A stretch of 61,166 nt of DNA from Oscillospiraceae bacterium (lineage in GTDB: Bacteria; Bacillota; Clostridia; Oscillospirales; WRJC01): NCBI GenBank assembly GCA_009780985.1, contig WQYZ01000003.1:1-61166 (forward strand). Direction: 5' to 3'. The notes below the pieces were generated by a model. It had not been told where the DNA came from. It did no database searches and saw nothing but the letters and a program-made list of their open reading frames with translations. The number at the start of each line of letters is the position of its first letter. The first letter of the stretch is position 1. The position numbers and the translations under genes are program-made. Below are positions 3,802-61,002 of the stretch, in pieces.

Positions 3802-4851
3802 ATGGCTGCCTCAAAGTGGTATCATATTATACCGGGTATAATGCTGTGTTTCGTGCTGGCTGTGCCGTCATGGCTTCTCGGCAAAACGTTCCCGATTATA
3901 GGAGGTCCTGTTTTTGCGATTGTCATCGGTATATTAATTTCCTTGTTTTTCCCAAAGCTAACTGTTTATAAGTTTAAGAAAACGCTGACATTTGAACACG
4001 GCGTCAAGTATACGTCAAAAAAATTACTTCAATACTCTATTGTCCTTTTAGGATTTGAAATGAATCTCTACAACGTTATAAACGTGGGGGGACAGTCTTT
4101 GCTTGTAATGCTTTTTACGCTTTCCGCGGCGTTTCTGACAGCGTTTTTCGTAGGCAAAGCGTTAAAACTTCCGGGCGACGCCACCACTCTAATTGGGGTC
4201 GGGACGTCCATATGCGGCGGTTCGGCGATCGCCGCAACCGCTCCGATAATCCGCGCTAAGGACGAAGACGTAAGCCAGGCGATTTCCACAATATTTCTGT
4301 TCAATATAATCGCCGTCTTTATTTTCCCCATATTGGGCAGACTAATGCACATGAGCGACATCGGATTCGGTATGTGGGCTGGAACCGCCGTCAATGATAC
4401 ATCGTCCGTCGTTGCGGCAGGCACGTCATGGAGCAACGCCGTCGGCAACAATACCGCGCTCCAGTTTGCGACAATCGTGAAACTCACGCGGACGCTTATG
4501 ATAGTCCCGGTTACGCTTGCTCTGGCTGTCTATACCACGCGCAAACGCGACCGTAAAATCGAACAGGACGGAGGCGGGAATTTTAGTTTTGTAAAAGTCT
4601 TTCCGTGGTTTGTAATTTTTTTCGTCATTGCCGCCGTATTAAACACATTTGCCGGGATTCCAGCGCAATGGTCGTCTGTATTGACAGAAATAGGCAAATT
4701 TGTGATTATAATGGCTATGGGCGCAATCGGACTGAACACAAACCTGAAAAAACTTGTCTCAAACGGAATAAAACCGATTTTACTCGGACTTTCCTGTTGG
4801 TTTGCGGTTGCCGCCGTCTCGCTGATAGTTCAAAATGTAATGGGGATTTGA
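3802..4851 (+). CDS. YeiH/UPF0324 family membrane transporter (putative sulfate exporter)
   Basis: Polytopic; GTSICGGSAIAA, GTAVNDTSSVVAAG, ATIVKLTRTL motifs; start may be TTG at 3790. Confidence 0.9.
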   Translation: MAASKWYHIIPGIMLCFVLAVPSWLLGKTFPIIGGPVFAIVIGILISLFFPKLTVYKFKKTLTFEHGVKYTSKKLLQYSIVLLGFEMNLYNVINVGGQSLLVMLFTLSAAFLTAFFVGKALKLPGDATTLIGVGTSICGGSAIAATAPIIRAKDEDVSQAISTIFLFNIIAVFIFPILGRLMHMSDIGFGMWAGTAVNDTSSVVAAGTSWSNAVGNNTALQFATIVKLTRTLMIVPVTLALAVYTTRKRDRKIEQDGGGNFSFVKVFPWFVIFFVIAAVLNTFAGIPAQWSSVLTEIGKFVIIMAMGAIGLNTNLKKLVSNGIKPILLGLSCWFAVAAVSLIVQNVMGI

Positions 4852-4865
4852 AGTCTTTATTTTTA

Positions 4866-7481: not shown

Positions 7482-7637
7482 TTAATATGAAAATCTCCTT
7501 TTAACTTTTATAACTTTTGCCTTTTTAACTATATAAAACTATATATTTTTTTATTATATGCTTTTAATATAAACTAAATTTAAACTAATATTTGTATAAT
7601 ATAAACTTTTTTGTGATGAATTTAACAAATACACAGT

Positions 7638-7663
7638 AAAAGACGGCGCGACAGCCGTCTTTT
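7638..7663. terminator. Intrinsic terminator hairpin downstream of URO-D-like gene
   Basis: AAAAGACGGC-gcgaca-GCCGTCTTTT. Confidence 0.65.
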
Positions 7664-7735
7664 TGGAGTTTTATTTGTAATGCTTAATTATCTAATCGAC
7701 AGCTTTCAGTCCGCAAACCGAAAGCCGCCGTCGTT

Positions 7736-8863
7736 TTAATCTTTAAATTCAACCATTCTTTTTCTGAAATGCATATAGTCGTTAAAATCCACTTCCTCCG
7801 GCACACCATGGTCGCATACCGGAATATATCCCCCGCGCTTCTTCATAACCGGCATAATCCTGTCGATTTCGCGGTCGATTGCGTCTTTTCCCGCCGCCAA
7901 AATACGCTTGTCTATTCCGCCGCGTATTTTCAAATCCGGGTACTTTTTCCCGACTTCCACAACATCGCAGCCAGCCGCGACTTCAAACGGCGACATATGA
8001 TCAAGTCCGATTTCCTCGTACAAATCTATAATCGGGTAAACAAATCCGTCGGTTGCGAGATGAAAAAATAAATGCCGCGATTTGTCTGTCTGCCGCGATT
8101 TTGTATTGTTTATCAACTGCCGATAATAGGGAAACAAAAATTCATGAATCATATCGGACGAAATAAGCGGTCCGTTTTTATAACATATATCTTCATCAAA
8201 TATAAGTTCATCTAATACAACATATTTCTGCTGTTCGGCTATAATTCTGTCCGCAAGTTCGAACCATGTTTTCATACAGTCATGTATAAGCTCCGGCTCG
8301 TCGTAGAATTTATATAAAACACCCTCGGGTCCCATGAGGCTTCGCAGATACATGTAACCGCCCACTAAATACTGCTGGATTACGCACCCTTCTTCTTCCC
8401 TGTCTATTGCAGGTTTTATATTTTTTTCAAAATTCGCATATCTTTCCGGCGAATTAGGGTTCATACGCCATTTGCAGTTTTCTTCCCACGATTTCATATC
8501 TTTGACAGGGTGATCGACATATTCGGGCATAAATCCGTTTCTGCGACCTTTAAAATACAGCACGCGCCGACCCGCGAAATCCTGAACTAATTCGTAATCG
8601 CCTCTGTCTTCCAAAATTTTTTCCTCAAAATACGGACAGAACGCAGCTTCGCACCCGCCGAGCCCTCCTAGCGTGGTGCACCCGGCATCTTCATACATAA
8701 ATAATTCGTTTAAATTCGTGCCGTCGGATATATATCCCTGACTTTTCCACTTATCAAGGCAGTAAAATCCGAATTCTGTCTGGATTATTCCCGAATCCGG
8801 CTTTATCGCGTAAAAATCGCGTACTTTTTTTGCCGCGGACGTCATTTTTTTATAATCTGTCAT
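7736..8863 (-). CDS. URO-D/MtaA-CmuA (uroporphyrinogen decarboxylase-like) family protein
   Basis: EDICYKNGPLISS, HLATDG, PFEVAAGCD, GGIDKRIL, GGYIPVCDHGVP motifs; ATG at 8863 preferred over 8884. Confidence 0.8.
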   Translation of the reverse strand: MTDYKKMTSAAKKVRDFYAIKPDSGIIQTEFGFYCLDKWKSQGYISDGTNLNELFMYEDAGCTTLGGLGGCEAAFCPYFEEKILEDRGDYELVQDFAGRRVLYFKGRRNGFMPEYVDHPVKDMKSWEENCKWRMNPNSPERYANFEKNIKPAIDREEEGCVIQQYLVGGYMYLRSLMGPEGVLYKFYDEPELIHDCMKTWFELADRIIAEQQKYVVLDELIFDEDICYKNGPLISSDMIHEFLFPYYRQLINNTKSRQTDKSRHLFFHLATDGFVYPIIDLYEEIGLDHMSPFEVAAGCDVVEVGKKYPDLKIRGGIDKRILAAGKDAIDREIDRIMPVMKKRGGYIPVCDHGVPEEVDFNDYMHFRKRMVEFKD

Positions 8864-8905
8864 TATTTTATCACGCCCTTTCACTGCGCTTATTATCTTG
8901 TATTA

Positions 8906-10270
8906 TTAATTCCCCGGCACGGCAACAGTTGTATCTGGAACCTCTGTTGTGTCTGGAATATTTGCCATTCCGGTCGTATCCGCCGAATTTGACGTATCTG
9001 TAGTATCCGGCACATCGGCGGGTTTTTCAAGAACCATTTTCCCGTTGTCGAACCATCCCGAATATGTTCTGCCGCTTGTCCAGTAATATGTCCCCCACCC
9101 GTGCATGGTGTTGTGCATAAAATCCCCCTCATAGTATTCGCCCGAAGCCCATGTATATTTGCCTGTCCCGTTATACGAATCATTTTCAAAATTGCCCTCG
9201 TACACGTCTCCGTTCGCCCATGCGTACTTGCCTTCGCCCTGTTTTACATCGTTCACATAGTTTCCGTCATATACGGACCCGTCTGCGAAAACATTCACTC
9301 CATGTCCGTTTTTCATATTATTTTTAAAACTCCCGGTATAAGAAGTACCGTCGCTCCATGTGAATACACCGTCGCCTTCTTTTTGACCGTTTAATATGTT
9401 TCCGACATAACTGTCGCCCTGAGCAAATAAAAATTCGCACTTCCCGGTTTTTTCGTCCGCGGCAAAATCGCCGTAATATATATCTCCGCTTTTATAATAA
9501 TACAAGCCTTTGCCGTCTTTCTGAATATTGCTGTTTATCGCTCCGATATACAAATCTTCCGCGTGGCCGCCTTTTTCGTAATATATTCTGTATATGTCAT
9601 ACGCAGGGTATAAATTTATTATATTGCCGCTGGCAAGCGTGAAAGTCGCAAAAGTTATCTGTTCGCTGTTTACAAACTGCAAAACGTCGCCTTTGTACAC
9701 TTTTGATTTATCGTCCTGCTGCGACACGTCAAAATCCACATATGACGATGTATTTGTTTTTGTAGCCACTAAAATCCACACTTTTCCGTCAGACGTGTGA
9801 ATTTCGCCGTATTTTATGTTATTCTTATCGGATTGATAATTTTTTATCAAAGTGCCGAAATCTTCTTTATGAAACATTATTCTGTCGTCCGAAGTGTTAA
9901 ATATAAAATTGTTCATCGGAAAATAATCCGTCATTTCTTTCGGCAAAGTATCGTTTATAATTTTTAAAACGTCGTCTGCGGGCGTAAGATTCAGAATTTT
10001 AAGCTGCCCGGCAAGATTCTTGTCTTTGATTTCTACCGTATAAAATTTCTGCAGACCGATACTCGCAACGGTATCTTCAAACCACATACTGCCGTTTGCT
10101 ATATTGCCGCTTTTGTCTACGCTGCCGAAATATTTTATTCCGGTATCCGCAGTTTTCATGTATCTTAAACCGGATTGATATATTATAATCACAACCGCTA
10201 TTATACAAATAATGGCGGCAATAAATATTGAAAGTATTATCGCGCCCGTTCTGTGATATTTTCTTTTCAT
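8906..10270 (-). CDS. MORN-repeat protein with N-terminal membrane anchor
   Basis: Repeated YxGxFxNxxKxGxGxYxWxxG units in C-terminal half; N-terminal hydrophobic helix; PDTT-repeat tail. Confidence 0.85.
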   Translation of the reverse strand: MKRKYHRTGAIILSIFIAAIICIIAVVIIIYQSGLRYMKTADTGIKYFGSVDKSGNIANGSMWFEDTVASIGLQKFYTVEIKDKNLAGQLKILNLTPADDVLKIINDTLPKEMTDYFPMNNFIFNTSDDRIMFHKEDFGTLIKNYQSDKNNIKYGEIHTSDGKVWILVATKTNTSSYVDFDVSQQDDKSKVYKGDVLQFVNSEQITFATFTLASGNIINLYPAYDIYRIYYEKGGHAEDLYIGAINSNIQKDGKGLYYYKSGDIYYGDFAADEKTGKCEFLFAQGDSYVGNILNGQKEGDGVFTWSDGTSYTGSFKNNMKNGHGVNVFADGSVYDGNYVNDVKQGEGKYAWANGDVYEGNFENDSYNGTGKYTWASGEYYEGDFMHNTMHGWGTYYWTSGRTYSGWFDNGKMVLEKPADVPDTTDTSNSADTTGMANIPDTTEVPDTTVAVPGN

Positions 10271-36058: not shown

Positions 36059-36535
36059 TTATTCGGTACGTTTAGAATATAAAAAATTATCTATTTCGTC
36101 CGCACGCTCAAATCGCCCAAGTTTTCTATAGGCTGAACTTTCATAGGAAAGATTCAATACAGGTAATTTCATATTTTTATAAACTATTTGTTCTATAAAC
36201 GGGCGTAAGTCAATTATATCTTCCCAAATATCATTGCATTTCTTTTGAATATCTCCCATTACTTCAATTTCCACTCCATTGATTGCAAAATATCCGATAT
36301 GTGACCGTACTTTTTCTATTGCTGAAAATAAAACAGGTCTTACAACATAATTCTTTAATAACTCATTAATCTCATATGCTCCCGCTTTATTTGTTTGAAT
36401 ATCAATATCGCGGGGGGTTAATTTCATCCCCTGAATTGTAAACGATGTACTTCCAGTTAGTACCCAAATTATTTCTCGCTGATTTAAATAATTGTATATA
36501 GTAACCAAAGCCGAATCTTGATTTAAACTTAACAT
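36059..36535 (-). CDS. Nucleotidyltransferase-fold protein
   Basis: WVLTGS...QG...DIDI motif; promoter TTGACG-N17-TATACT at 36600-36628 argues for ATG 36535. Confidence 0.7.
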   Translation of the reverse strand: MLSLNQDSALVTIYNYLNQREIIWVLTGSTSFTIQGMKLTPRDIDIQTNKAGAYEINELLKNYVVRPVLFSAIEKVRSHIGYFAINGVEIEVMGDIQKKCNDIWEDIIDLRPFIEQIVYKNMKLPVLNLSYESSAYRKLGRFERADEIDNFLYSKRTE

Positions 36536-36673
36536 CTTGCTATCTCCGAATATAAACTTTCCACGTTTAAATAATAATTTAAAACTATTTAATAATATAA
36601 GTATAACATATCGCTTATAATTCGTCAATGAAATAATCATTATTTTTCAAAAATTTATAAATATAAAATAAAA

Positions 36674-43764: not shown

Positions 43765-43800
43765 AAAAATCCCGATATATTACGATATATCGGGATTTTT
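43765..43800. terminator. Bidirectional terminator after tRNA-His / SLH gene
   Basis: AAAAATCCCGATATAT-tacg-ATATATCGGGATTTTT. Confidence 0.8.
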
Positions 43801-43835: not shown

Positions 43836-45101
43836 TTACTGTAAATCTACAGAAGCATTAAGTATATCCTCGAACGCCCAGTGATTTGCAGACAAGTCAT
43901 TATATAAACTCCGTAAACTGTCAGGAATTTTATCAAGGCTTGGTCTGCCAAGTATACGATTGACAATTACCACGCATTCGGCGCGCGTAATATTCGCCTC
44001 AGGTCTGAATGTATTGTCCGGATAGCCGGACAGCCATCCTTTGGCGTATGCTGATGCAATGCTTTCGTATGCCCAGTAGTCTTTTGAAATATCTGTGAAT
44101 GGTATAGTTGCGTCGTCTAAAATATCATAAAAACGTGATGCAATTACTACAAATTCTGCTCTTGTGATGGGTTCGTTGGCTCTGAATGTATCGTCCGCGT
44201 AGCCTCTCAGTATGCCTTTTGAAGCTAAATATGTCACCGCTTGCGCGTACCATTCGTTGCCGGTTATATCGCTGAATGGGTTGACAATAATATCATTTTT
44301 ACTGCCGTCTTTTACCAAACGGAAGAATATCATAGCAACTTCAGCGCGAGTAATCGCAATGTCCGGTTTTACGCTTCCGTCCCCGTAGCCGCTGATATAC
44401 TTTTTGCCTGTTTCAAATGGATTGCTATTATTTGTTATAATATTACCTAAAGCTTGCGGTACAGAATTATCTGGAATGTCTTTGGTTTCTTCTCCTGATG
44501 CCGTCGTTTCAGCTCCGTTGGTTCCTGTGCCGCCGTTGTTACCGCCGGTTCCGGTACCGCTGTAGTCAGGGTGAGGCGTAACAGGAGCAGGAGGAGCAGG
44601 TGTAACGTTAATCGCACCGTTCACGCCGTTCAATGGAAATGGATTTTCTATATCGTTGGCTGAAGCCGCCTGAGCGGTAACTGTTAATGATATTGTATCA
44701 GTCGTAACACCGTTCGCTATTTTGAAACTAAGAACAGCCAATTTGCCATTTACATTGCTATCTTTTAAACCGTCGTTAGACGCAGTAACTGTAACACTCC
44801 CTTGTTTATTCGCTACATCGGACTTAGTTGATACAAACGCTACTGTTTCTGCAAATACATCAAATTGTTGTGCACATCCTAAGTACGTTAATTTTGTATT
44901 GTCATAGCTAACATCAAATTCATATCCTGCGATACCTGTGTTACCCGATAATTCCACCGGCACGCTCACCGTGTCGCCTGCTTTACCTGTTACCGTACCT
45001 ACCGTTATTGTCGGGCTGGCGGCTAAAACCACCATAGGCAGCATACTTATCACCATCATAACTATAATAATCAGACAAAATGTTTTTATTAATTTTTTCA
45101 T
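43836..45101 (-). CDS. Cell-surface anchor: signal peptide, cohesin, P/T/G linker, three SLH repeats
   Basis: TITVGTVTGKAGDTVSVPV...DVSYDNTKLTY...NGAINV cohesin pattern; three GYxDxxxxP/A..ITRAE SLH motifs. Confidence 0.85.
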   Translation of the reverse strand: MKKLIKTFCLIIIVMMVISMLPMVVLAASPTITVGTVTGKAGDTVSVPVELSGNTGIAGYEFDVSYDNTKLTYLGCAQQFDVFAETVAFVSTKSDVANKQGSVTVTASNDGLKDSNVNGKLAVLSFKIANGVTTDTISLTVTAQAASANDIENPFPLNGVNGAINVTPAPPAPVTPHPDYSGTGTGGNNGGTGTNGAETTASGEETKDIPDNSVPQALGNIITNNSNPFETGKKYISGYGDGSVKPDIAITRAEVAMIFFRLVKDGSKNDIIVNPFSDITGNEWYAQAVTYLASKGILRGYADDTFRANEPITRAEFVVIASRFYDILDDATIPFTDISKDYWAYESIASAYAKGWLSGYPDNTFRPEANITRAECVVIVNRILGRPSLDKIPDSLRSLYNDLSANHWAFEDILNASVDLQ

Positions 45102-45150: not shown

Positions 45151-48100
45151 TTATTTTAACGAATATGCCGTAGTGAATTCCCTGAAAGCAAGCGTGTCAT
45201 CCTCAATGTCGCCTGTAACTCCCAATGCCAACTGCCGCGCCGCGCCAAGCTCATCAAGGTTCTTGTCGCCGTAATATCGGGAGAATATCATGAAATCCTT
45301 AAAATTCAAATCCCCGTCGCCGTTCAAATCAAACTTGACTACAACTGTTTTCGTGTCTTTATTATCGCCGTTCTCCAAAATAATTACCATTCCTGTGCCA
45401 AGCAGAGTATCCGGGTCTGTGATTTCATTGCCTTTACGGTCATATACTTTTATATTGTCGTGGTTATTCGCAAGTTCGTTCAGCAGGTCGCCGACTGTTG
45501 TTCCGTCTCCTGCTATAGAGCCGGTTATGAATCCGTTCTCAATATTGAAGTGCGACCCGCCTTTCAGGGTTATTCCCAACGGTTCATATATCGCCGTAAC
45601 AGTCAAGTCACCTTCGATGTCGCTGAAATCAGTTACCTTAGTGTTCGAATCAGTGAACCAGCCCGTGAATTTGTAACCTGGTACAGCCGGTGCCATGGGC
45701 GCAGTCGCAAATTCGCCGTACTTCACACTCTGTTCCTTTATCAAATTGCCGTCTTTATCGTTGAATATAACCGTATATGTGTTTTTATCGTATTGTGCTG
45801 TCACTGTAAGGTCTGATTTTATATTGCTGAAATCAGTGACTTTAGTGTTCAAATCAGTAAACCAACCTTTGAACGTATAACCTGTCCTCGTCGGATTTGT
45901 CGCCGGAGGCGTCGCTGACGTATTGTAGTCTACCATTTCACTTTTTAGCGTCGTACCATCCCAGTCTACGAATGTCACCTCGTAGCTGTTTATCTTATAT
46001 TGTGCCGTAACTGTGAGGTCGCCTTTGATATCTTCGAAAGAGTTGTCCCAACCTGTGAACGTGTAGCCTGTTACTGCCGGTGCTGTAGGCGCTGTTGCCG
46101 ATTCGCCGTATTTCACCGTCTGCGTATCGCCAATCGGGTTGCCGTCAAAGCCTATGAACGTAACCATGAAAGTAGGAACGGTTATTTTAATCCAACCGTC
46201 GCTTTTTGTGATGTCGGAAATCGGAACCTCGTCTGAACCAAGAAGAACGGAATCAAGCGATAAATCTACTTTAGCATATGTTACTGCGTCATCTTTTATT
46301 TTGAATTCAAGAGTAAACATAGTTCCGTCACCGGAGAAAACCGAAGAACCATTATCTGCAGTAACCCAAAACTTTCCGGCTGCATTTATCTCATTCAAAA
46401 AACCTGGCATAAACCTTCCGTCTCCGGCGGCAACGCTATCGGCAAATACGTCACTTTGCTCACAGCCTACATACTCTAATTTTGTATTGTCGAATGTTAT
46501 TTCGACTGTATATGTTACGATACCCGGGTTTTCCGTCAATGTAACCGGCACCTTTACCGTGTCGCCGGCTTTGCCTGTTGCCGTACCTACCGTTACTGTC
46601 GGATTATTTGTTGAAATCAGTTCCCACTCCGCCGTCAACTCTACGTCTGACGTAATCGGCGTGCTGAAATCGAACGCGGATCCCTCGTCGTCAGAATACC
46701 AATAGCAGAAATTGCAGCCGTCTTTAACTGGATCTGGCATTGGTCTGTCTACATAGTCGCCATTTGTCACTGGCACTGTGGTTGGATCGGTTCCATTGTC
46801 TGCGTCGAATGTAACGGTATAGATTATTGCCGGTACTTCTTCCCATTGTGCCGTCACGGTCGTGGGTTCGGTGATATTGCTGTAATCTCCAACCCAGCCA
46901 ATGAACGTGTAACCCGCTTTCGTCAGATTTGTCGGAGGCGTCGCCGTTTCGCCGTATGGAACGCTGTCAGTTCCGAGTACAGTAGTGCCGTCGCTGTCTA
47001 CAAATGTAACATTTATATTATACTGCGCTGTCACAGTTGTGGGTTCGATGATTTGGCTGAAATCTTCGGGGTCCCAGCCTGTGAACGTATAGCCTGTCCT
47101 CGTCGGATTTGTCACCGGAGGCGTCGCTGACGTATTGTAGTCTACCATTTCACTTTTTAGCGTCGTACCATCCCAGTCTACGAATGTCACTTCATAGCTG
47201 TCTATCTTATATTGTGCTATTATGGTGAGGTCGCCTTTGATATCTTCGAAAGAGTTGTCCCAACCTGTGAATGTATAACCTGTTCTCGTTGGATCACTCG
47301 GAGCTTTCGCATTGCCGCCTTCTGCCACGCTCTGCTGTTCGCCAATCTTATCGCCGTTCCAGTCTTGGAATATTACCGTGTAGTATGTCGTTACCGGAAC
47401 CGCCGTCCACTGTGCTATAAGCGTTACATCTGATGTGATCGCCACACCGAAATCAAACAACGTAGCTCCGCCGTAGCTCCAGCCGTCGAATGTGTATCCG
47501 TCTTTACTTGGGTCTGCGGGCTGTTTAGCCTTACCGCCGTCTGCCACTGTCTGACTGTCTGCCAGAGTTGTTGTGCCGTCGCTGTCGAAAAATGTTACTT
47601 TGTGGGTAACTGTAGGAGTTGTTCCGTCTGGAATAAACACAACGTCCCTTAAATAATTGTGACCGAGCGATACGGCTGGATATGTACCATATGCGGAGTA
47701 AACCCCTGTTTGCTTCGGATACGAAAGATTACTGCCATTATCTCCCGCACTTTCGGGATTGTTTGAGATCGCCGCATAATTCCCAGCCGCGTCGGTGGAA
47801 ACGGAAACGGTGTAGCTGACATCGGCTTTAACAGGCGTAGATGTTATTGGTAGGTATACCCAACCGTCATTGCCGTCAAAACTTACAGTGTCCTCGTAAA
47901 TTGCCTCACCAGTGCTGTTGTTGTATATTGCCACATGATGGTCTCCGGTTTCTTCCGCATACGCGAACACCCTAATATATGTTATCGTTCCGTCTACTGA
48001 TGGAGTGAATATTGTTCCCAGTTCACATGTTCCCGAGTTTGTGCATAGAATAATTCCGTCATCCGTGCTCAGATCGCCCCAAATTGTTTCGGCGTTGTCC

Positions 48101-51100
48101 GGTAGAACGAAGTCGCCGCTCGCTTTTACGGTTATTCTGACCGTATAGCTCGCTTCGTTCGTTCCGTCTGTCGCGGTGAACGTCACGGAATATATTCCGT
48201 GTTGTCCGACGTCAGGCGTCCAACCGAACTTCTGAGTATCAGAGTCAAAACTTGCGCCGCCAGGCAGATTAGCCGCAGAGTAAGTCAAGTCTCTGTCACT
48301 GACCGCGTGTACTGTGAAGCTGAGGCTGTTCCCCTCCGCTACGGTTTTATCTGCTATCGCGTCAAATATTGGAGTGTTATCCACCTCTGCCGCGTTGACC
48401 GTAACGTCAAAGCTCGTGGTTTTGGTTACTCCATTTTCGGTGTAGCTCACTGTCACAGTCTGAGTGCCTTCGGTATCGAGTTTTGAACCCTCAGCCGGAT
48501 TCGTTTTGTAGCCGCTGACTGCCTTGCTATCTTCGCTGCTGTAGGTCGCCGTTACCACCATACCTGTAAGGTCAAGGACATCGCCTACGGTATATTCTAT
48601 CGTTTTCGGCGGGGTTGTGACGGCTAACTTATCCAGTGTCACCATTGGCGGCTCTACGCCATCGGGAATGAAGACAACATCACGAAGGTAATTACAGCCG
48701 TATGTGTCCGTAGGGCGTGCCGTGAACGTTAAGTCTGTGTTAGCTACACCAAAATTATCTGGATAGTAAAGGCACCCGCCGTTGTTCCCACTGACCGAGG
48801 CATGTTGGATGGCTGGATAAGCCGTTGCGTCGTCCGTGCCAGTTGAAACAGAGACGGTGTAGTAGACGTCAGCGTCGATATGAAGCGGACTATCTAAATT
48901 ATAATACTCCCATTTATTTGCTCCGGTATAGTCAAACACTTCCGGTCCGAAGACTAGGTCCCCGTCATTGTTCCATATTGTGATTGTGTGCTCACCTGTT
49001 TCCCCTGGGATTCCGTATACCCTTACGGATGTTATGTTACCCGGTTCGGATGAATAGAACACAGTCCCTAAGTTATATGAAACGCCGTCTCCCTGGAATG
49101 CCCCTATGTCGGCTGTTTCATCGATATTGCCCCAGATGGTTTCCTCGCCGCCCTGCGGGACAACAGTTGCGGTTACGGTTATTGTTATTGTTTTGTTGCT
49201 GACCATTACCCCGTCGTCCGCCGTAAATTTTACGTTATACACACCGGACTGTCCGACGCTCGGCGTCCACTTGAATTCGCCTGTCTGCGCATTAAGAGTC
49301 GCGCCGTCGGGCAGCACATCCGCCGAATATGTAACCTGTCCGTTTTCGCTTGTTGCGAGTACGGTAAAACTGAGGCTTTCGCCTTCCTTCACGGTTTGAT
49401 CAGTCAAGTCAGAAAAGGTCGGAGCCTTGACCGCGCCGTCGTTCGGCACGAATACTACATCACGCAGATAGTTGTTATGATATTGATTATCCATGGGCTG
49501 CGTGCCTAAGTCGCCGTATACCCCGGCATATGCAGGATAAATGAGGTTCTTCCCATTGTTGCCCGCAGTTGCCGGCGAATTGTTGATCGACGCGTATAAA
49601 TACGGGTCACTCAATTGGGTGGAGACAGAGACGGTGTAGTAATGTCCGGCTTGAACCTGCACAGGTTCGGGTAATTCTATATAGACCCACTCGTTATCGC
49701 CCGTATATGTAGCAGTACCGCTGTAAATTTGCGTTCCGGGCACGAAAGCCGCGTCGCTTTCCCAAATGGATACGTTGTGAGTACCGGTTTCCTGCCCAGA
49801 GATATTCGCGTCGCCGTATACCCCACTGAACCCGAATATTTTGACGTGGGTTATCTCACCGTCAACGATCGGGGAAAACACCGTCCCAAGCTCGTACGCC
49901 CCGCCGTAACCCGCCGTTATGCCTTTTACGGAGGTACCCCAAATGGATTCGGAGTTATCCGGCAGGTTGTAAAAGCTTTTCACGGTTATCGTGATGGTCA
50001 CGCTGTCGAGGCTCAGCTTGTCGCTCGCGGTGAACGTTATGTTGTATACGCCGTATTGCCCGACACTCGGCGTCCACTTGAATTCGCCTGTCTGCGCGTT
50101 AAGGGTCGCGCTGTCTGGCAGTTTGTCCGCCGAAAAGGTTATCGGGACCAAAACCTCATTGCCGCCGTTATCCGCTGACAGCGTAAATCCTATCTGATCC
50201 TTTTCCGTTACGGTTATGGAATTCCCATCCACGTTGGACTGTATTGTCACCGCGGGGATGGCGTCGTTGGAATACTCAGCCGTAAATAAATCGCCGTCGT
50301 GCGCAGTGACGAACGCGTATCCGTTGCCTTTGACGGTTTCAACATCATAGCCGCTGGCCGGAACGCCATTTATGCTTTCCAGAATATGCCCATCATAAAA
50401 AGCTGGAATCATCGCGGTTAGGTTCCCGTAACCCTGACCCTGCGCTGGGGAAGAGACATTGAACGTCAGGACGCTCGTATTATTGTCCCAAGCTATGTTT
50501 TTGAAGCTTGCGCTGTCGCGCATGTTAGTGAAATTGTACATATCCCTGCCGCTGCAGATGGGGATGCCGTTGCTTTTAGAATAAGCCAATACTTGTACGG
50601 CTTCGCTCTTATAGCCGCTTCCGTCTCCGTTAAGCCAGCCTGCGGGATGGAAGTTGGCGGTCAGCCAGGCATAGTCCTCATTATTAAGGGCGTTGTCAAG
50701 CATTGTTTTATAATTTGCGGCTATAGTATAGTGGAAATATTCGTCCGGAAGCTGGGTGTCGTTCTGGTATATGTCCAGCACCTCGCCCTTGCTTGTGGAG
50801 AACTTCATGGGCATACCGCTTCCGTTCTCAAAGCCGGGGTTGCCGAGGTTCAGGAAGTCAAACACATTATAATAGTTGAAGTCCATCATAATGCCGTATT
50901 TCCGCTCTAACATTGCCTGAGCGGCGAACTCCGGCAATCCGTTTGAGTCTGTGCCGCACCATATCACACAGTGGTTGCGCACGGAAGTCGGTGACGGGCT
51001 GACACTGCCATATTTATTGTCGAAAATACTCTCAGCACTTGCGATAGTCGCGTCCGCAGACGCCCAAGACGGCTCAGATGCGTGCTCGAAATGGATCGCG

Positions 51101-52140
51101 AACTCATTACCTTCGTCAGTCCATGTCTTGATCTGCGCCGGCGAATCTATCATGTCGCTCACCCACGAATAAATGGATGCGTGACCGCCGTAACTCATAA
51201 CGGTATTGAATTCGTCCGCAAAATTTTGCTGCGCGCCATCCGAATCGCCCGTAAAGACAGTCATCGCCTTTTTACCGTCGGGGAAGTACCACAAGCGCGG
51301 CAAAGGCATCGTGGAGGTGTTCATCCATTCGATTATGTGAGACAGAAGCCGCATTTGCTCATCCGCCTGTGGTATTTCGACTTTTGTGTTGTCGTTGTAT
51401 GAACCGCCGTCTTTTTGGTACATTAAATCCCCCGCGCGGAGATAACCGTCATTGTTCGTATCCACACCTGCGTTGGCTGGATTCCCCTGCCTCGTATACA
51501 CGATGCTTTTGCATAGATCGAATGAAAACGCGGCTGTTCTGCCTCCGCCGTATTCATTCGCCGCGACTGCGGCACTGCCGGAATCTGTAACGCTGTTGTT
51601 ATATAAAGACGCTATTTTGCTGCCGGTTGTGAGTCCATATTTATCCGCGTCGCCATGGAATTTCATGGTTTCGGATATCAACCCCCGACCGATTTCAGTG
51701 GAAGTGTCAATTTTTATGTACCCTTCGGAAACTGCGCCGGATGTGCCTGAAATTCCGAATAGATTATAAAGCTGTGCGTCCGGCTGTATCCCGATTAAAT
51801 TTCCGCCGTCATTCACATATTGCTCAAGCATTGCGCTCTGCTCTGACGTGACTGATGTTTCTGTCAGAATAACTACGTCAAACTGATTGAGGTAATCTTC
51901 TGATAGATTATTTATATCTTCTGTTTCAAATTCATTGAATCCTTCTTCTTTTAATATCTCGCCCATATACGCGCCAAACGTGTTTGCAGAGTTGCTGTTT
52001 ACTACTAGAATAGGGTTTGATGAGCTTAGAGATGCCGAAGTATTTTCATCGGCTGCAAATATCGTAGTGGAAGGAAGAAGCCCGAATAACATACACACAA
52101 ATAATACAAAAGCCAATAATTTTCTAAATTGATTTTTCAT
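45151..52140 (-). CDS. 2329-aa secreted modular protein: GATase-like and deacetylase-like N-terminus, 3x DUF4082-like, Ig/cadherin-like repeats, InlB-B repeats, internal cohesin, C-terminal dockerin
   Basis: Signal peptide; TGDSD/HFEH/RNH/NFHP barrel motifs; three units ELGT.F...NYLRDVVF.P; LPDGATLN..TGEFKWTP; PTRTGYTFTGW repeats; cohesin at ~46181-46605; FDLNGDGDLNFKD EF-hand. Confidence 0.8.
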   Translation of the reverse strand: MKNQFRKLLAFVLFVCMLFGLLPSTTIFAADENTSASLSSSNPILVVNSNSANTFGAYMGEILKEEGFNEFETEDINNLSEDYLNQFDVVILTETSVTSEQSAMLEQYVNDGGNLIGIQPDAQLYNLFGISGTSGAVSEGYIKIDTSTEIGRGLISETMKFHGDADKYGLTTGSKIASLYNNSVTDSGSAAVAANEYGGGRTAAFSFDLCKSIVYTRQGNPANAGVDTNNDGYLRAGDLMYQKDGGSYNDNTKVEIPQADEQMRLLSHIIEWMNTSTMPLPRLWYFPDGKKAMTVFTGDSDGAQQNFADEFNTVMSYGGHASIYSWVSDMIDSPAQIKTWTDEGNEFAIHFEHASEPSWASADATIASAESIFDNKYGSVSPSPTSVRNHCVIWCGTDSNGLPEFAAQAMLERKYGIMMDFNYYNVFDFLNLGNPGFENGSGMPMKFSTSKGEVLDIYQNDTQLPDEYFHYTIAANYKTMLDNALNNEDYAWLTANFHPAGWLNGDGSGYKSEAVQVLAYSKSNGIPICSGRDMYNFTNMRDSASFKNIAWDNNTSVLTFNVSSPAQGQGYGNLTAMIPAFYDGHILESINGVPASGYDVETVKGNGYAFVTAHDGDLFTAEYSNDAIPAVTIQSNVDGNSITVTEKDQIGFTLSADNGGNEVLVPITFSADKLPDSATLNAQTGEFKWTPSVGQYGVYNITFTASDKLSLDSVTITITVKSFYNLPDNSESIWGTSVKGITAGYGGAYELGTVFSPIVDGEITHVKIFGFSGVYGDANISGQETGTHNVSIWESDAAFVPGTQIYSGTATYTGDNEWVYIELPEPVQVQAGHYYTVSVSTQLSDPYLYASINNSPATAGNNGKNLIYPAYAGVYGDLGTQPMDNQYHNNYLRDVVFVPNDGAVKAPTFSDLTDQTVKEGESLSFTVLATSENGQVTYSADVLPDGATLNAQTGEFKWTPSVGQSGVYNVKFTADDGVMVSNKTITITVTATVVPQGGEETIWGNIDETADIGAFQGDGVSYNLGTVFYSSEPGNITSVRVYGIPGETGEHTITIWNNDGDLVFGPEVFDYTGANKWEYYNLDSPLHIDADVYYTVSVSTGTDDATAYPAIQHASVSGNNGGCLYYPDNFGVANTDLTFTARPTDTYGCNYLRDVVFIPDGVEPPMVTLDKLAVTTPPKTIEYTVGDVLDLTGMVVTATYSSEDSKAVSGYKTNPAEGSKLDTEGTQTVTVSYTENGVTKTTSFDVTVNAAEVDNTPIFDAIADKTVAEGNSLSFTVHAVSDRDLTYSAANLPGGASFDSDTQKFGWTPDVGQHGIYSVTFTATDGTNEASYTVRITVKASGDFVLPDNAETIWGDLSTDDGIILCTNSGTCELGTIFTPSVDGTITYIRVFAYAEETGDHHVAIYNNSTGEAIYEDTVSFDGNDGWVYLPITSTPVKADVSYTVSVSTDAAGNYAAISNNPESAGDNGSNLSYPKQTGVYSAYGTYPAVSLGHNYLRDVVFIPDGTTPTVTHKVTFFDSDGTTTLADSQTVADGGKAKQPADPSKDGYTFDGWSYGGATLFDFGVAITSDVTLIAQWTAVPVTTYYTVIFQDWNGDKIGEQQSVAEGGNAKAPSDPTRTGYTFTGWDNSFEDIKGDLTIIAQYKIDSYEVTFVDWDGTTLKSEMVDYNTSATPPVTNPTRTGYTFTGWDPEDFSQIIEPTTVTAQYNINVTFVDSDGTTVLGTDSVPYGETATPPTNLTKAGYTFIGWVGDYSNITEPTTVTAQWEEVPAIIYTVTFDADNGTDPTTVPVTNGDYVDRPMPDPVKDGCNFCYWYSDDEGSAFDFSTPITSDVELTAEWELISTNNPTVTVGTATGKAGDTVKVPVTLTENPGIVTYTVEITFDNTKLEYVGCEQSDVFADSVAAGDGRFMPGFLNEINAAGKFWVTADNGSSVFSGDGTMFTLEFKIKDDAVTYAKVDLSLDSVLLGSDEVPISDITKSDGWIKITVPTFMVTFIGFDGNPIGDTQTVKYGESATAPTAPAVTGYTFTGWDNSFEDIKGDLTVTAQYKINSYEVTFVDWDGTTLKSEMVDYNTSATPPATNPTRTGYTFKGWFTDLNTKVTDFSNIKSDLTVTAQYDKNTYTVIFNDKDGNLIKEQSVKYGEFATAPMAPAVPGYKFTGWFTDSNTKVTDFSDIEGDLTVTAIYEPLGITLKGGSHFNIENGFITGSIAGDGTTVGDLLNELANNHDNIKVYDRKGNEITDPDTLLGTGMVIILENGDNKDTKTVVVKFDLNGDGDLNFKDFMIFSRYYGDKNLDELGAARQLALGVTGDIEDDTLAFREFTTAYSLK
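45871..47271. repeat. ~190-bp near-identical direct repeats (45871-46059 and 47083-47271) within the large gene
   Basis: Shared CCTGTCCTCGTCGGATTTGTC...GGCGTCGCTGACGTATTGTAGTCTACCATTTCACTTTTTAGCGTCGTACCATCCCAGTCTACGAATGTCAC...GATATCTTCGAAAGAGTTGTCCCAACCTGTGAA; offset 1212 bp. Confidence 0.9.
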
Positions 52141-55376: not shown

Positions 55377-56939
55377 ATGAATAATACAGCAATATATCTT
55401 AGGCTTTCTTCGTCTGACGAGAACTACGGCGAAAGCAACAGCATCAAAAATCAGCGCGATTTACTGACGATGTTTGTCGCAAATCAGCCGGATTTACGCG
55501 AGACAAAAATCATAGAGGTATGCGACGATGGTTACAGCGGCACTAATTTTGACCGCCCCGGAGTGAAACGTCTGCTTGAACTCGTAAAAAACGGCGAAGT
55601 GAAGTGCATACTTGTCAAGGATTTTTCGCGTTTCGGCAGAAACTATATCGAAACCTGCGACTATATCGAGCAGATTTTCCCAAGCCTGGGAGTGCGGTTC
55701 ATCAGCGTGAACGACGGTTATGACAGTGACAAAACAGATATGTCGGCAGGCAATCTCAACGTCGCGTTTATGAATCTGATTCATGATTTATACGCCAAAG
55801 ATATATCCACAAAAATCAAAACCGCGCAAAGAGTCCGTTGGGAAAAAGGCGAAATATCAACCCCTTCCACGATTTTTGGCTATGCCAAATCACCTGACGA
55901 CAAGCATAAAATTGTTATTGATAAGCCTGCGGCGGATATAGTCAAACAGGTATTTAACATGGCGGCAAATGGTTACGGAACTGCGGAGATAGCGCGATTT
56001 TTGAACGCGAATAATATACCCACGCCGGGTAAATATAAAAAACGCGCCGATAAAGTTAATAACGACTCGTCAATATTTTGGACTAATAGTATGGTGCGTA
56101 AAATTATAACGGACGAGAAATATACAGGCAAGGCGATATTCGGTAAAACCCGCAGAAAAGCCGTCGGCAGCAGACAAATTCTTGAAGTGAACAGAAACGA
56201 GTGGATAATAAAAGAAAACGCCTTTGAAGCGATTATTACGGAAGATATTTTTACCCGGGCGCAGAAAAAAGATTCAAGAGAAAGATTACCCGTTCATAAA
56301 CAAAAAGAACAGCGCATAATATATGGGAAAGTCCGCTGTTATAACTGCGGGCGTCTCATGGACCGCCGGACTTATAAAAATCCCGTATATGTATGCGAAA
56401 CACCGAAATTCATCAATTCGCCGGGCTGTGTCCGCGGGCATACTTCAGAGAGAGCGGCTGCGCACTGCCTGTTTGAGATGGTACGAATAAGATTAGAAAT
56501 TTATTCAGATTCAGAAAATGACATATTGAAACGTAACGAAGCTGATTTATCAGAGAATAAACGCCGCCAAATATCGCTTAAAATACAAGAAACCCGGCGC
56601 TTGCTGCAGAAATTGTCGCAAAATCAAATATCGTTGTACGAGAGTTATCAGGATAAAAAAATAAGCCGCGAACAATATTCAACCGAACGCGAAACGTTCA
56701 ATTCGCAGATTGAAAGCCTCGAAAATCAGTTACAGTTGTTAAGATCCGAACTTGAACTGACTGCGCTTCCTAAATCCGCGCCGCCTGAACAAACTTATAT
56801 GCGGTCTGTGAACGGCACGGAACTATCGCGGAAAATGGTTGATTGCCTGATTGACGGCATTATCGCATACGGCGCAGACAGAATTAAGATTAACTGGAAA
56901 ACGTCTGATGATTTGACCCTCATTGAAAAAAAGCGGTAA
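55377..56939 (+). CDS. Large serine recombinase (resolvase, recombinase, Zn-ribbon, coiled coil)
   Basis: AIYLRLS (catalytic Ser), DDGYSGTNFDRPG, VKDFSRFGRN, FGY, YTG, CYNCG...C...C. Confidence 0.92.
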   Translation: MNNTAIYLRLSSSDENYGESNSIKNQRDLLTMFVANQPDLRETKIIEVCDDGYSGTNFDRPGVKRLLELVKNGEVKCILVKDFSRFGRNYIETCDYIEQIFPSLGVRFISVNDGYDSDKTDMSAGNLNVAFMNLIHDLYAKDISTKIKTAQRVRWEKGEISTPSTIFGYAKSPDDKHKIVIDKPAADIVKQVFNMAANGYGTAEIARFLNANNIPTPGKYKKRADKVNNDSSIFWTNSMVRKIITDEKYTGKAIFGKTRRKAVGSRQILEVNRNEWIIKENAFEAIITEDIFTRAQKKDSRERLPVHKQKEQRIIYGKVRCYNCGRLMDRRTYKNPVYVCETPKFINSPGCVRGHTSERAAAHCLFEMVRIRLEIYSDSENDILKRNEADLSENKRRQISLKIQETRRLLQKLSQNQISLYESYQDKKISREQYSTERETFNSQIESLENQLQLLRSELELTALPKSAPPEQTYMRSVNGTELSRKMVDCLIDGIIAYGADRIKINWKTSDDLTLIEKKR

Positions 56940-58896: not shown

Positions 58897-61002
58897 TTAT
58901 TTTATCCCCTGCGCCAATAAAACCATAAGCCTGTTTAAAACGGTCGCGGCTTCCGCTCTTGTAAGAGTTTTCGCGGGCATAAACATGCCGTTTGAACCTT
59001 GTAAAAGTCCTAAATTTGTGCAGGTCCTCACGTCGTTTGTATATACCGGATTTATGGAGTTCAAATCGGAATAGTTAAGCGCGGGCGTAATAAATTTTGA
59101 CGTGTCGATTCCCGCATATTCCGCGGCTCTCGCTATCATATACGCCATTTCCTCGCGCGTGACCGCTTTGTTCGGATTATAGTCAAGCCCCGTCGCATAT
59201 CCGTTAAGCCCCATTGTATCGCCGGTTTGAATGTCGTTATAAAACCAATCCGAAGATTTTACGTCGCTGTAAGTCTTTGCAGTTTTCGGCGCGGGCGCGT
59301 TATATATATTTGACAAAACCCTTGTCAGCATTGCGCAGAATTCCGCGCGCGTCAAAGTGCCGTCGGGTTGATAAGTTCCGTCCGTATAACCGTTTACTAT
59401 AAACGAGTTCGCGGCGTTTAATATATCGGTTTTTGCCCAATGATTTGATATGTCGCTGAAGCTCGCGTTTCTCTGCGCTATCCAGTATGTGACTGCGCTT
59501 CTCGGCAGTTTTATTTTTATTACGCCGCCGGATTTAACCTGAGGAATCGGGAAAGCCGGGCTGCTCGTTATAAATCTGTAACTGTCGTCTTTTACGGGAA
59601 CGCTTAAATAAACGTTGTCAGGGAATTTACCGTTCAAATAAGCGGAACCTACACTATTGCCCGATTTGTCGTATACGGTGAAAGCGATGAAGTACAGAAA
59701 CTGCTGAGACGTGTCCATTTTAACCGCGAGATTATAATCCCCGGTCAGATAATCGCTTTTCAAGCCGTTTGCATAACTGAACGGAACGTCCAAATATCCG
59801 CCCGCAGTGAAATTAAATCTGAAAACTCCGTTGTTATATTGTTTGCAGAGGTCGGACATTGTCTTTGCGTTTATCAGACAGGTATAAACTCCGGTTTTGA
59901 TATTGTAACTGTAAATCCCGTTGTTTATATTGCTTATATTGTCCTGAACGTCAAACTTATCGATAATTGCGCCGGTCGAGTCAATTACGGTGAAGTTTAT
60001 ATTCGGGGTTTTTACCGGAACTGCCGTATTTTTCGTCGAGAACGTTGTTATGCCTGTCGTCTGTCCGGCGATTGTAACGATGCACGACAAAGTTATGGTT
60101 ACATTATTTATCGTTATGTCAACCATATATCTTCCGGAGTAACCTTCTGAAGCATTGTTTATTACAAGAGTGTCTCCCGTAGCGTTTGATATTAAAGTGC
60201 CTTTGGAATACCATTGATATTGTACAGAAGAATTGTTTTTATCGCTTACGTCAACTGAAAGCTCCAAATCTATGCCCGCCGCAGCATATATATTTGACGG
60301 AACTTTATGAAAATTCCACTCCACTTTTCTGAAATTACTGAACACGGAACTGTCGTATCCCGCTGCGTCCGACGGGATTATAAACACGCAGTTTGACGGA
60401 ACCCCGGCAAACGCGCTGCTTACTGCATTGTAAGCTGCGCCGTTTGAATTGAACGCCACCACTGTTTTAAGTCCGGCGCAGTTTGCAAAGGCATTTTCGC
60501 TTATGCTTGTCAAATACTGCGGAAGCGCAACGCTGTCGAGAACGTAACAGTTTGAAAAAGCGTTCGCGCCGATTGTCTGCACATACGGGCTTATACTAAC
60601 GTTTAAAAGAGAGTAGCAGTTCGCAAACGCGCTGTCCCCTATCGCGGTTACGCTCATCGGAATAGCTATGCTCTGTAAACCTGCGCAATTCTGAAACGCT
60701 CCGTCGGGAATTTTATTGTCTTTGAATGTCGCGTCTGTGAGATTAAGAGATATAATATTCGGCAGAGTTTTTATAAAATCACAGTCGGCTTTTGTGATTT
60801 GTCCGTTTCCGGTTATAGTCAGCACATAAACGCCTGTGTCGTTTGAACCAAACGCGGTTTCAAAATCCGCGTCGGAGCTGCTGTAATTCACCGTAAGATA
60901 AGCCGACGCCGCCGATATGGCGATATTCATAACCGGCACAATCAGAAATACCGCAATCAACAGAGATAATGCTTTTTTTAATTTATTTTTCATATTTACC
61001 AT
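58897..61002 (-). CDS. Surface protein: BspA/TpLRR leucine-rich repeats, Ig-like domain, three SLH repeats
   Basis: AFxNCxxLxSIxIPxxVTxIG repeats, YQWY Ig motif, FSDISNHWA / LTRAE / VTREE SLH motifs. Confidence 0.85.
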   Translation of the reverse strand: MVNMKNKLKKALSLLIAVFLIVPVMNIAISAASAYLTVNYSSSDADFETAFGSNDTGVYVLTITGNGQITKADCDFIKTLPNIISLNLTDATFKDNKIPDGAFQNCAGLQSIAIPMSVTAIGDSAFANCYSLLNVSISPYVQTIGANAFSNCYVLDSVALPQYLTSISENAFANCAGLKTVVAFNSNGAAYNAVSSAFAGVPSNCVFIIPSDAAGYDSSVFSNFRKVEWNFHKVPSNIYAAAGIDLELSVDVSDKNNSSVQYQWYSKGTLISNATGDTLVINNASEGYSGRYMVDITINNVTITLSCIVTIAGQTTGITTFSTKNTAVPVKTPNINFTVIDSTGAIIDKFDVQDNISNINNGIYSYNIKTGVYTCLINAKTMSDLCKQYNNGVFRFNFTAGGYLDVPFSYANGLKSDYLTGDYNLAVKMDTSQQFLYFIAFTVYDKSGNSVGSAYLNGKFPDNVYLSVPVKDDSYRFITSSPAFPIPQVKSGGVIKIKLPRSAVTYWIAQRNASFSDISNHWAKTDILNAANSFIVNGYTDGTYQPDGTLTRAEFCAMLTRVLSNIYNAPAPKTAKTYSDVKSSDWFYNDIQTGDTMGLNGYATGLDYNPNKAVTREEMAYMIARAAEYAGIDTSKFITPALNYSDLNSINPVYTNDVRTCTNLGLLQGSNGMFMPAKTLTRAEAATVLNRLMVLLAQGIK

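Follow-up and report, generated by a model that had tools for sequence, protein, structure and literature searches.

Display of proteins through cohesin-dockerin pairs is best known from cellulosomes, and a protein that unites a cohesin with a dockerin is reported from Archaeoglobus fulgidus.

Among the closest described systems is the amylosome of Ruminococcus bromii. According to the available part of Ze et al. 2015 (PMC4611034), the cohesin of Amy4, a 1356-aa GH13 amylase running at >250 kDa on zymograms, binds Amy4's own dockerin, and this dockerin also binds the cohesin of the wall-anchoring, sortase-linked Sca2. The idea that Amy4 forms chains was shown there with recombinant modules and pull-downs, and one R. 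bromii dockerin binds four different cohesins. Adaptor scaffoldins have one cohesin and one dockerin per chain; in many of them an enzyme forms the N-terminus, and SLH-anchoring scaffoldins are their predicted docking partners. ScaC of R. flavefaciens is such a monovalent adaptor scaffoldin (PMC4081043, available text), and Paenibacillus guangzhouensis has 28 GH-cohesin-dockerin proteins together with five SLH anchors (PMC11557425, available text). In Acetivibrio, the anchors of the SdbA and OlpA/OlpC type consist of a signal peptide, a cohesin and an SLH triplet, and their partner ends in an X-module/dockerin dyad (PMC3413522, in the part available). On the whole, the socket-and-plug design of the cell surface is already known, and in R. 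bromii is shown at the bench; the locus reported below is a further example of it, and since this design is in the literature already, it holds little surprise for specialists. What the locus adds is a non-cellulosomal example from an uncultured gut-type Firmicute, with a 2329-aa cargo protein of uncharacterised activity, and a survey of relatives in the same taxonomic order, where a cohesin and a dockerin on one chain are commonly encoded next to a cohesin gene.

The window, namely the whole analysed stretch of 61,166 nt (contig WQYZ01000003.1 of an Oscillospiraceae bacterium), has two neighbouring genes which, with a probability of roughly 0.55 in our estimate, form a cohesin-dockerin surface-display unit. 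The X-dockerin of a giant protein would tether it to an SLH anchor, leaving the giant protein's internal cohesin as a second socket. The features concerned are the following.

43765..43800, no strand assigned: palindromic terminator-like hairpin just past the anchor stop, from a consensus scan only
43836..45101, minus strand: anchor ORF of 421 aa, with signal peptide, cohesin, Pro/Gly-rich linker and three SLH repeats
about 43845-44414, minus strand: the three SLH repeats of the anchor (Pfam, E 7.4e-36)
44604-45011, minus strand: anchor cohesin, residues 31-166 (Pfam, E 2.8e-16)
45151..52140, minus strand: giant ORF of 2329 aa (ORF call and Pfam profiles)
45154..45333, minus strand: divergent dockerin of three helices (homology, AF2 model, structure search)
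45295-45330, minus strand: canonical Ca loop of the dockerin, DLNGDGDLNFKD, with F/K at positions 10/11
45334..45573, minus strand: X module, a small beta domain of ~80 aa, model residues 15-94 (alignment and AF2 model)
45601..46158, minus strand: three Flg_new (Listeria-Bacteroides) repeats, a spacer of ~190 aa between cohesin and X-dockerin (Pfam)
45862..46161, minus strand: 300-nt direct repeat, copy 1, coding for Flg_new (repeat comparison)
46183..46599, minus strand: internal type-I-like cohesin, residues 1848-1986 of the giant ORF (Pfam, PDB sequence, AF2 model)
47074..47373, minus strand: 300-nt direct repeat, copy 2 (repeat comparison)
50250..52050, minus strand: N-terminal cargo module of ~600 aa, conserved, function not assigned by profile

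Like the amylosome, the locus encodes a secreted cargo protein that has one cohesin and ends in a dockerin, as well as a second, wall-anchored protein bearing a single cohesin, whose R. bromii counterpart can take the Amy4 dockerin. In place of the GH13 amylase and the sortase-linked Sca2, we find a 600-aa module with DUF4082, He_PIG and Flg_new domains, and an SLH anchor. The window dockerin is also unlike that of Amy4 in having an X module and one intact Ca loop, and whereas Amy4 self-recognition is established at the bench, the window is known from sequence and its two cohesins differ in their binding sheets. Having one cohesin and one dockerin, albeit a divergent one, the giant protein has the composition of a ScaC-type monovalent adaptor scaffoldin; ScaC, however, is small and cargo-free, while the window protein is giant and carries cargo. 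The proteins of P. guangzhouensis have known GH families and Pfam-recognisable dockerins, whereas only one protein of this kind is encoded in the window, and a Flg_new spacer separates its cohesin from a divergent X-dockerin. The Acetivibrio systems resemble the locus both in the anchor and in the partner's terminal dyad, but in sequence and fold the two window cohesins resemble type I and not type II, and the window is free of cellulases and CBM3. The X module may be distinct from those of CipA and ScaA. In the literature searched, analogues are found, and nothing on a one-Ca-loop X-dockerin combined with Flg_new, DUF4082 and a cohesin. A cellulosome is ruled out, as CBM3, scaffoldins with several cohesins and glycoside hydrolases bearing a dockerin are all absent from the window; the proposed display unit lies outside any recognisable cellulosome. 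The sole GH-like neighbour in the window, P0003, is membrane-anchored and lacks a dockerin.

The two genes are close together, with the anchor ORF beginning 49 nt past the stop codon of the giant ORF on the same strand. The anchor N-terminus is hydrophobic and ends in VLA/AS in the translation, from which the signal peptide is read; together with its cohesin (Pfam PF00963, 60.4-60.7 bits against a cut-off of 24.1) and the SLH triplet, it has the parts that define an SLH-anchoring scaffoldin, namely a signal peptide, at least one cohesin and three SLH repeats. Searching 41 genomes with the whole anchor mostly gives SLH matches. In the consensus scan, the gene pair has a terminator-like hairpin after the anchor gene only, and this hairpin is likely the end of a two-gene operon. 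The giant ORF in turn begins with a Sec-type signal peptide and the ~600-aa N-terminal module, followed by three He_PIG + DUF4082 units, Big_3 and Flg_new repeats, and then, in its C-terminal part, by the cohesin, three Flg_new, the X module and the dockerin-like module. Coordinates 45151-46605 of the minus strand encode its residues 1846-2329, and Flg_new is detected in three stretches of the C-terminal 484 aa (E 4e-32).

That this giant protein combines a cohesin with a dockerin was proposed in the first-pass annotation, and for the cohesin the proposal is borne out. Pfam PF00963 detects it at E 3.3e-15 (56.9-63.6 bits, cut-off 24.1), and a PDB sequence search matches cohesins, 4uyp_A being the best at E 4e-6. 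Its AF2 model (pLDDT 78.4) has 121 Foldseek matches at E<=0.001, with 2vn5_C as the best (E 3e-13, TM 0.73-0.78), and among the matches listed all are cohesin chains or cohesin-bearing entries. The model is the nine-stranded beta-sandwich expected of a cohesin, with low confidence in the region of strand 5, where residues 61-76 lie below pLDDT 50 and no confident strand is formed.

The dockerin is divergent and stays below the Pfam cut-off, and its identification is backed by homology and modelling. Dockerin_1 (PF00404) scores 11.6-15.5 bits, the cut-off being 22.9, and aligns over profile positions 24-55 only, i.e. one repeat; EF-hand models score about as weakly, and the 154-aa piece made of X module and dockerin (X-Doc, residues 2176-2329) finds no profile family at E<=0.001. 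By definition a type I dockerin is a duplication whose two segments both contain a Ca-binding loop of 12 residues, and the module departs from this: the first loop is canonical, and in the family alignment the second segment has lost the ligands of loop positions 1, 3 and 12, just as the first-pass annotation had read one canonical loop with F/K at positions 10/11 and one degenerate loop. By phmmer the piece has 359 matches at E<=1e-3, the nearest at 53% and 46% identity, and it is homologous over its full length to proteins with Pfam-dockerin C-termini behind the same beta module. Dockerin_1 is matched by 35 of the 42 sequences of the X-Doc alignment, which comprises the window piece and 41 of 150 listed matches chosen for short length. 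The best PDB sequence match of the C-terminal module is the dockerin 2y3n_B (E 1.6e-5). The AF2 model of X-Doc is confident (pLDDT 95.1), with helices at 105-117, 124-131 and 137-153. As a whole it has no Foldseek match in the PDB at E<=0.001; in a VIA structure search of 48,161 chains, the six top-ranked are all dockerins from solved complexes (Z 6.1-4.9, in the tool's 'common' range), aligned to model residues 92-154 with rmsd 2.4-3.4 A over 54-61 residues. Homology, the confident model and the structure search point to the C-terminal module being a divergent dockerin. By analogy with asymmetric R. flavefaciens dockerins, which have one interface (PMC5429695, available text), it is reasonable to expect a single binding orientation, as the first-pass annotation did. 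The X module in front of it, missed in the first-pass annotation, precedes the dockerin throughout the X-module and dockerin family aligned here.

The two cohesins of the window had been regarded as closely matching paralogs, with quoted peptides which are both present in our translations. Their likeness is real, with 46% identity over 110-111 aa in BLASTP (E 9e-20) and reciprocal best matches among 137 cohesin domains, but it is a mosaic, with 36/59 identical positions (61%) in the first part and 24/83 (29%) in the rest. Nor do the trees join them firmly: one ML tree places both in a clade with SH-aLRT 89 which includes a third sequence, and the second leaves the grouping unresolved. With strand borders taken from the AF2 model (pLDDT 78), the non-binding back sheet 9-1-2-7-4 has 27 of 47 positions identical, while the dockerin-binding strands 8-3-6 have 8 of 31 (2/10 in strand 3 and 3/14 in strand 8, whose alignment is gapped; Fisher p 0.01 for the difference between the sheets). 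These are whole-strand identities, used in place of the C. thermocellum contact residues Asn37/Asp39/Gly123/Ala125. The available texts of earlier studies give this sheet particular weight: the dockerin interface is the cohesin sheet 8-3-6-5, where differences explain specificity (PMC5429695), mutating four dockerin-contacting residues of a cohesin switches specificity (PMC5772552), and specificity is not predicted by cohesin type or likeness (PMC3413522). Since the likeness of the window pair is on the back sheet and not on the binding sheet, the specificity that the first-pass annotation took them to share is not supported, and the low identity of the binding strands is a hint that they differ in specificity. 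As the binding sheet of the internal cohesin has diverged from that of the anchor, a different dockerin is likelier for it than the protein's own, and judged from sequence, the internal cohesin is probably a second socket with a different ligand. This favours recruitment of other dockerin proteins, which the first-pass annotation had named as one alternative to chains.

From the modules, folds, gene order and conservation pattern observed here, we infer every binding step of the surface-display unit. The SLH repeats would hold the small anchor protein on the cell wall, and the Ca-dependent X-dockerin of the giant protein would plug, in one orientation, into the anchor cohesin. Facing outward, the internal cohesin of the giant protein would then offer a second socket, much like that of a monovalent adaptor scaffoldin with added cargo, and would probably take a dockerin other than the protein's own. 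Candidate ligands in the bin are a class-3 lipase-dockerin (lipase_3) on contig C355 and a dockerin-Big_2 protein on C369, the dockerin of which adjoins its own cohesin, one of three in the bin. At 4.9 Mb the bin exceeds the 2.0-2.6 Mb of its genus, and it has 6% contamination, so both proteins may belong to another organism. A search of this 87.7%-complete bin with the X-Doc profile gives one full-length match, the giant protein, and searches of genome and metagenome contigs with the X-Doc piece each give one spurious 31-residue match and no orthologous locus.

The chain proposal of the first-pass annotation is possible but doubtful to us. Here the X-dockerin would fit both the anchor and the internal cohesin, so that each docked copy regenerates a free socket and Amy4-like head-to-tail chains grow from the SLH anchor. 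Its enabling architecture is real, with a bench precedent in Amy4 (PMC4611034, available text), and the window cohesins are reciprocal best matches; the premise of shared specificity, however, is not supported, the binding sheet being the least conserved part of the pair, and the trees do not firmly join the two. Cross-binding is nonetheless compatible with a diverged face, as one R. bromii dockerin binds four cohesins. Uncultured relatives from the same taxonomic order lend the proposal further weight. Among 10 loci, which were chosen for showing cohesins in large or adjacent ORFs, six ORFs of five genomes (G091, G019, G122, G020 and G121) have a cohesin and a dockerin on one chain. Like the window protein they are large surface proteins (with LRR_5, Flg_new or RicinB cargo), and some adjoin cohesin or cohesin-SLH genes. 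In G091 and G019 the tandem cohesin is sister to that of the neighbouring gene (support 99/96 and 98/95), and the binding sheet is at least as conserved as the back sheet (18/31 vs 20/47 in G091, 15/31 vs 17/47 in G019), the reverse of the window pair. G019, 99% complete, has four cohesin matches and a single detectable dockerin, which is in the tandem protein itself, of 1484 aa; two SLH-cohesin anchors belong to the same locus. However, this support is by analogy and comes from loci selected as above; moreover, the relatives' dockerins are canonical and abut the cohesins, the module borders either overlapping or separated by a few residues, whereas in the window ~190 aa and the X module lie between. 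We tentatively consider, as an unlikely generalisation, an order-wide design in small-genome uncultured Clostridia, where the cohesin-dockerin pair of giant surface proteins would be a socket-regenerating link: with a dockerin fitting both the anchor cohesin and that of the next copy, homopolymers bearing adhesin or enzyme cargo would grow outward from just one SLH anchor. G019 is the strongest hint of it, and the window protein would, by analogy, be a spaced-out X-dockerin version. If self-chaining is true in this order, the Amy4 principle would no longer be confined to one amylase but would be a general means of making long surface fibres with few genes, and protein engineering would gain new orthogonal pairs of cohesin and dockerin, among them one with a single-loop X-dockerin.

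Two further readings concern the dockerin itself. It might be decayed, or a plain EF-hand stabiliser which binds no cohesin, leaving the two cohesins to serve other dockerin proteins. The score below the Dockerin_1 cut-off with one repeat matched, the similarly weak EF-hand models and the ligands missing from the second loop all agree with this, but the degenerate second segment is retained in the two nearest kin (53% and 46% identity), which argues for selection rather than decay. With a confident model that is dockerin-like over all three helices, and a position directly upstream of a cohesin anchor gene, we regard decay as improbable. Alternatively, the ~190-aa Flg_new spacer is long enough for the dockerin to reach the internal cohesin within its own chain, an intramolecular binding also named in the first-pass annotation, which would mask both modules until the anchor cohesin displaces the internal one, or would lock the C-terminus. 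We find no precedent for such closure in the available texts of the literature examined, and since cohesin and dockerin abut in the relatives, cis binding is unlikely as a general role; we consider it very improbable here. The diverged binding face is neutral for cis closure.

As for the cargo of the giant protein, its N-terminal module belongs to a widespread family of stand-alone hypothetical proteins of ~610 aa, of which 1477 match at E<=1e-10, with 37-46% identity and 94-99% of the query covered. A PDB sequence search with these N-terminal 600 aa gives no match, and Pfam and NCBIfam give no family above cut-off; a ThuA-like match is weak (32.4 bits, cut-off 33.4), and in the Atlas, polysaccharide deacetylase is the lead in 10 of 30 matches. 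In addition, the two copies of the 300-nt direct repeat flank the internal cohesin, and their last 200 columns are ~93% identical between copies.

The stretch singled out by the first-pass annotation is the C-terminal part of a giant protein, whose gene lies next to that of its presumed anchor:

36059-36640, minus strand: ORF matching aminoglycoside-2''-adenylyltransferase (PF10706, E 2e-16)
43836-45101, minus strand: anchor ORF, 421 aa, 49 bases downstream of the giant ORF on the same strand
45151-52140, minus strand: giant protein, 2329 aa (ORF call)
45151-46605, minus strand: last 484 residues of the giant protein (translation)
45862-46161 and 47074-47373: two copies of a 300-nt direct repeat, encoding near-identical Flg_new repeats either side of the internal cohesin
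50250-52050, minus strand: N-terminal module of the giant protein, about 600 aa
52824-55049, minus strand: GH30/GH59-like protein, 741 aa, hydrophobic anchor segment at the C-terminus, without dockerin, upstream of the giant gene
55377-56939: serine recombinase gene, upstream of the giant gene
58897-61002, minus strand: surface protein with LRR_5 and SLH

By Pfam, the giant protein carries a weak ThuA-like stretch, three He_PIG, three DUF4082, Big_3, Big_9, at least eight Flg_new repeats and one cohesin, and the anchor a cohesin at residues 31-166 (E 2.8e-16) and three SLH stretches (E 7.4e-36); both N-termini have a hydrophobic, signal-like segment. A consensus scan places palindromic terminator-like hairpins 3' of the anchor gene and 3' of the upstream GH30/59-like gene, the latter sitting between that gene and the giant gene, and finds none between the giant and anchor genes. 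Since a hairpin follows the anchor gene and none the giant gene, the two look like one operon.

The internal cohesin reported before is borne out: Pfam calls it over residues 1848-1986 (56.9 bits against a cut-off of 24.1, E 3.3e-15), solved cohesins are matched by sequence (best 4uyp_A, E 4e-6), and its AF2 model (pLDDT 78.4) has the fold of type I cohesins (2vn5_C, E 3e-13, being the best of 121 matches at E<=0.001). The anchor cohesin leads by sequence to type I cohesins as well (best 6kg8_A, E 3e-7). The C-terminal module scores 11.6-15.5 bits against Pfam Dockerin_1, below the cut-off of 22.9 and with one repeat covered only, and the last 149 residues best match a dockerin in the PDB (2y3n_B, E 1.6e-5), whose two repeats each align to the single canonical loop. 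Run with HMMER against 1.84 billion representatives, the last 154 residues bring up 359 relatives at E<=1e-3; the aligned part falls near the C-terminal end in most of the 150 listed, and the consensus of these relatives is a beta module of about 75 aa followed by a two-repeat dockerin. In an alignment of 42 sequences (the window piece and 41 of the 150 listed relatives, chosen for short length), Dockerin_1 is detected at E<=0.001 in 35, the window's own piece not being among them. The one canonical Ca loop and degenerate second loop described earlier are both confirmed: the first loop reads DLNGDGDLNFKD, a canonical sequence carrying F/K at positions 10/11, and in the family alignment the second segment is missing the Ca ligands of positions 1, 3 and 12 in its loop. 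The AF2 model on this alignment (pLDDT 95.1) has a beta module at residues 15-94 and three helices; Foldseek finds no match to it at E<=0.001, and the top six of 48,161 chains in VIA-align are all dockerins from solved complexes, spanning model residues 92-154 at modest Z (2ccl_B 6.1, the rest 5.5-4.9). Adding the homology to these modest fold scores, we interpret the module as a divergent dockerin with an X module in front of it (X-Doc). The X module was absent from the earlier description of the protein.

The two window cohesins had been taken for closely matching paralogs. They do share 46% identity over 110-111 residues (BLASTP, E 9e-20), and are reciprocal best hits (next best 32-41%) among 137 domains cut out of the 47 proteins that a profile search retrieved from 5.8 billion at E<=1e-8. 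However, their smallest common clade in the 137-domain ML tree includes a third domain (SH-aLRT 89), with both on long branches, a 17-domain ML tree does not unite them, and the likeness is a mosaic, 36/59 residues being identical in the first part (nt 71%) and 24/83 in the rest (nt 49%). Placed on DSSP strands of the AF2 model, identities amount to 27/47 in the back sheet 9-1-2-7-4 and 8/31 on the dockerin-binding strands 8, 3 and 6 (strand 3 2/10, strand 8 3/14; Fisher p 0.01, with positions non-independent). In a C. thermocellum cohesin, the four partner-switching contact residues reportedly lie on strands 3 and 8. Passages in the literature describe sheet 8-3-6-5 as the dockerin interface, where differences explain specificity (PMC5429695), a partner switch upon mutating four contact residues in a C. 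thermocellum cohesin (PMC5772552), and cohesin type as not predicting specificity (PMC3413522). Because these passages weight the very sheet on which the window cohesins diverge, the premise that their likeness implies a shared socket is left unsupported.

Cohesins are common in the order, being found in 77 of 151 genomes (E<=0.001). Among ten fetched loci with a cohesin in a large ORF or two adjacent cohesin ORFs, a chosen and non-random sample, six ORFs in five genomes combine cohesin and dockerin (tandem ORFs):

G091: 1919 aa, LRR_5 cargo
G122: 648 aa, RicinB cargo
G020: two ORFs, 2166 and 2101 aa
G019: 1484 aa, tandem N-terminal
G121: 2663 aa

No such ORF is found in the other four loci; in one of them (G026) a cohesin-SLH anchor adjoins a 2672-aa cohesin protein cut by the contig end. 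Cohesin genes are adjacent in five loci, and the tandem and neighbour cohesins are reciprocal best hits in the window's bin G000 (46%), G091 (52%) and G019 (47%), but not in G122 and G026. In G091 and G019 the two cohesins group as sisters with good support (99/96 and 98/95) and, unlike the window pair, keep their binding strands, where identity is no lower than in the back sheet (G091 18/31 vs 20/47, G019 15/31 vs 17/47). Against four cohesin matches, the 99% complete G019 genome shows a single dockerin (Pfam and X-Doc profile), located in the tandem protein; its locus (L038, G019:C20:23000-34000) encodes two SLH-cohesin anchors (ORFs 1779-4298 and 4310-5440) and then the 1484-aa protein (5440-9891), which starts with cohesin-dockerin and continues with LRR_5 and Flg_new, and offers a clean test case for self-recognition. 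Cohesin and dockerin recur on one chain also in four metagenome CHAP/NlpC-type wall hydrolases (P0026, P0041, P0049, P0081), ordered Flg_new, cohesin, dockerin, cohesin, Flg_new, dockerin. Published passages report 5-11 cohesin-plus-dockerin adaptors per strain of R. flavefaciens, typified by ScaC (PMC4081043), and 28 one-cohesin/one-dockerin proteins, often with a GH module, beside five SLH anchors in Paenibacillus guangzhouensis (PMC11557425).

Socket and plug on one giant protein are real, with qualifications, and it is the shared specificity behind the proposed polymer that is weakened. Most likely (probability about 0.55), the X-Doc would dock into the anchor cohesin and tether the giant protein to the wall, and the internal cohesin would act as a second socket, every binding step being predicted. 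The diverged binding sheet of the internal cohesin leans towards a different dockerin as its ligand, the candidates in the same bin being the lipase_3-dockerin protein of contig C355 and the dockerin-Big_2 protein of C369. The latter has 331 aa and a canonical dockerin, and is followed by a cohesin and Cu_amine_oxidN1 protein cut by the contig end (L005, G000:C369:1-2853). With 4.9 Mb over 387 contigs, 87.7% completeness and 6.2% contamination, the bin is twice as large as its congeners (two same-genus genomes of 2.0 and 2.6 Mb) and may hold more than one organism, so both candidates may belong to another.

A head-to-tail chain on the SLH anchor, with the X-Doc fitting both cohesins, is a legitimate idea already demonstrated elsewhere: passages of PMC4611034 report that the cohesin of R. 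bromii Amy4 (GH13-cohesin-dockerin) binds its own dockerin, which also binds the wall-anchoring Sca2 cohesin, the authors proposing multimers. Its main support here is the analogy with G019 and G091; with its premise of a shared socket weakened for the window pair, we regard such a chain as possible but rather doubtful. Less likely than tether or chain are a decayed dockerin that binds nothing, which is improbable, since the two nearest relatives (53% and 46% identity) share the degenerate second segment, and closure in cis, which appears more improbable still.

The first 600 or so residues of the giant protein fall into a large family whose members are stand-alone proteins of about 610 aa (1477 at E<=1e-10; 37-46% identical across 94-99% of the query), and all names that the sources give for those listed read 'hypothetical protein'; two of those listed carry an added DUF4082, as the giant protein does, and there are weak leads to a ThuA-like and a polysaccharide-deacetylase fold. 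Genome and metagenome contigs yield no close relative of either the X-Doc or the locus, and the two same-genus genomes (90-91% complete) neither cohesin nor X-Doc. The giant gene (window 46001-52000) has a GC of 0.48-0.51 vs 0.37-0.43 in the flanks; with the upstream serine recombinase and the lack of both modules in the same-genus genomes, this might reflect an accessory or acquired locus. The copies of the 300-nt repeat are 82% identical overall and about 93% over the last 200 columns, and, lying on either side of the cohesin, they point to a recent intragenic duplication or recombination around this module.
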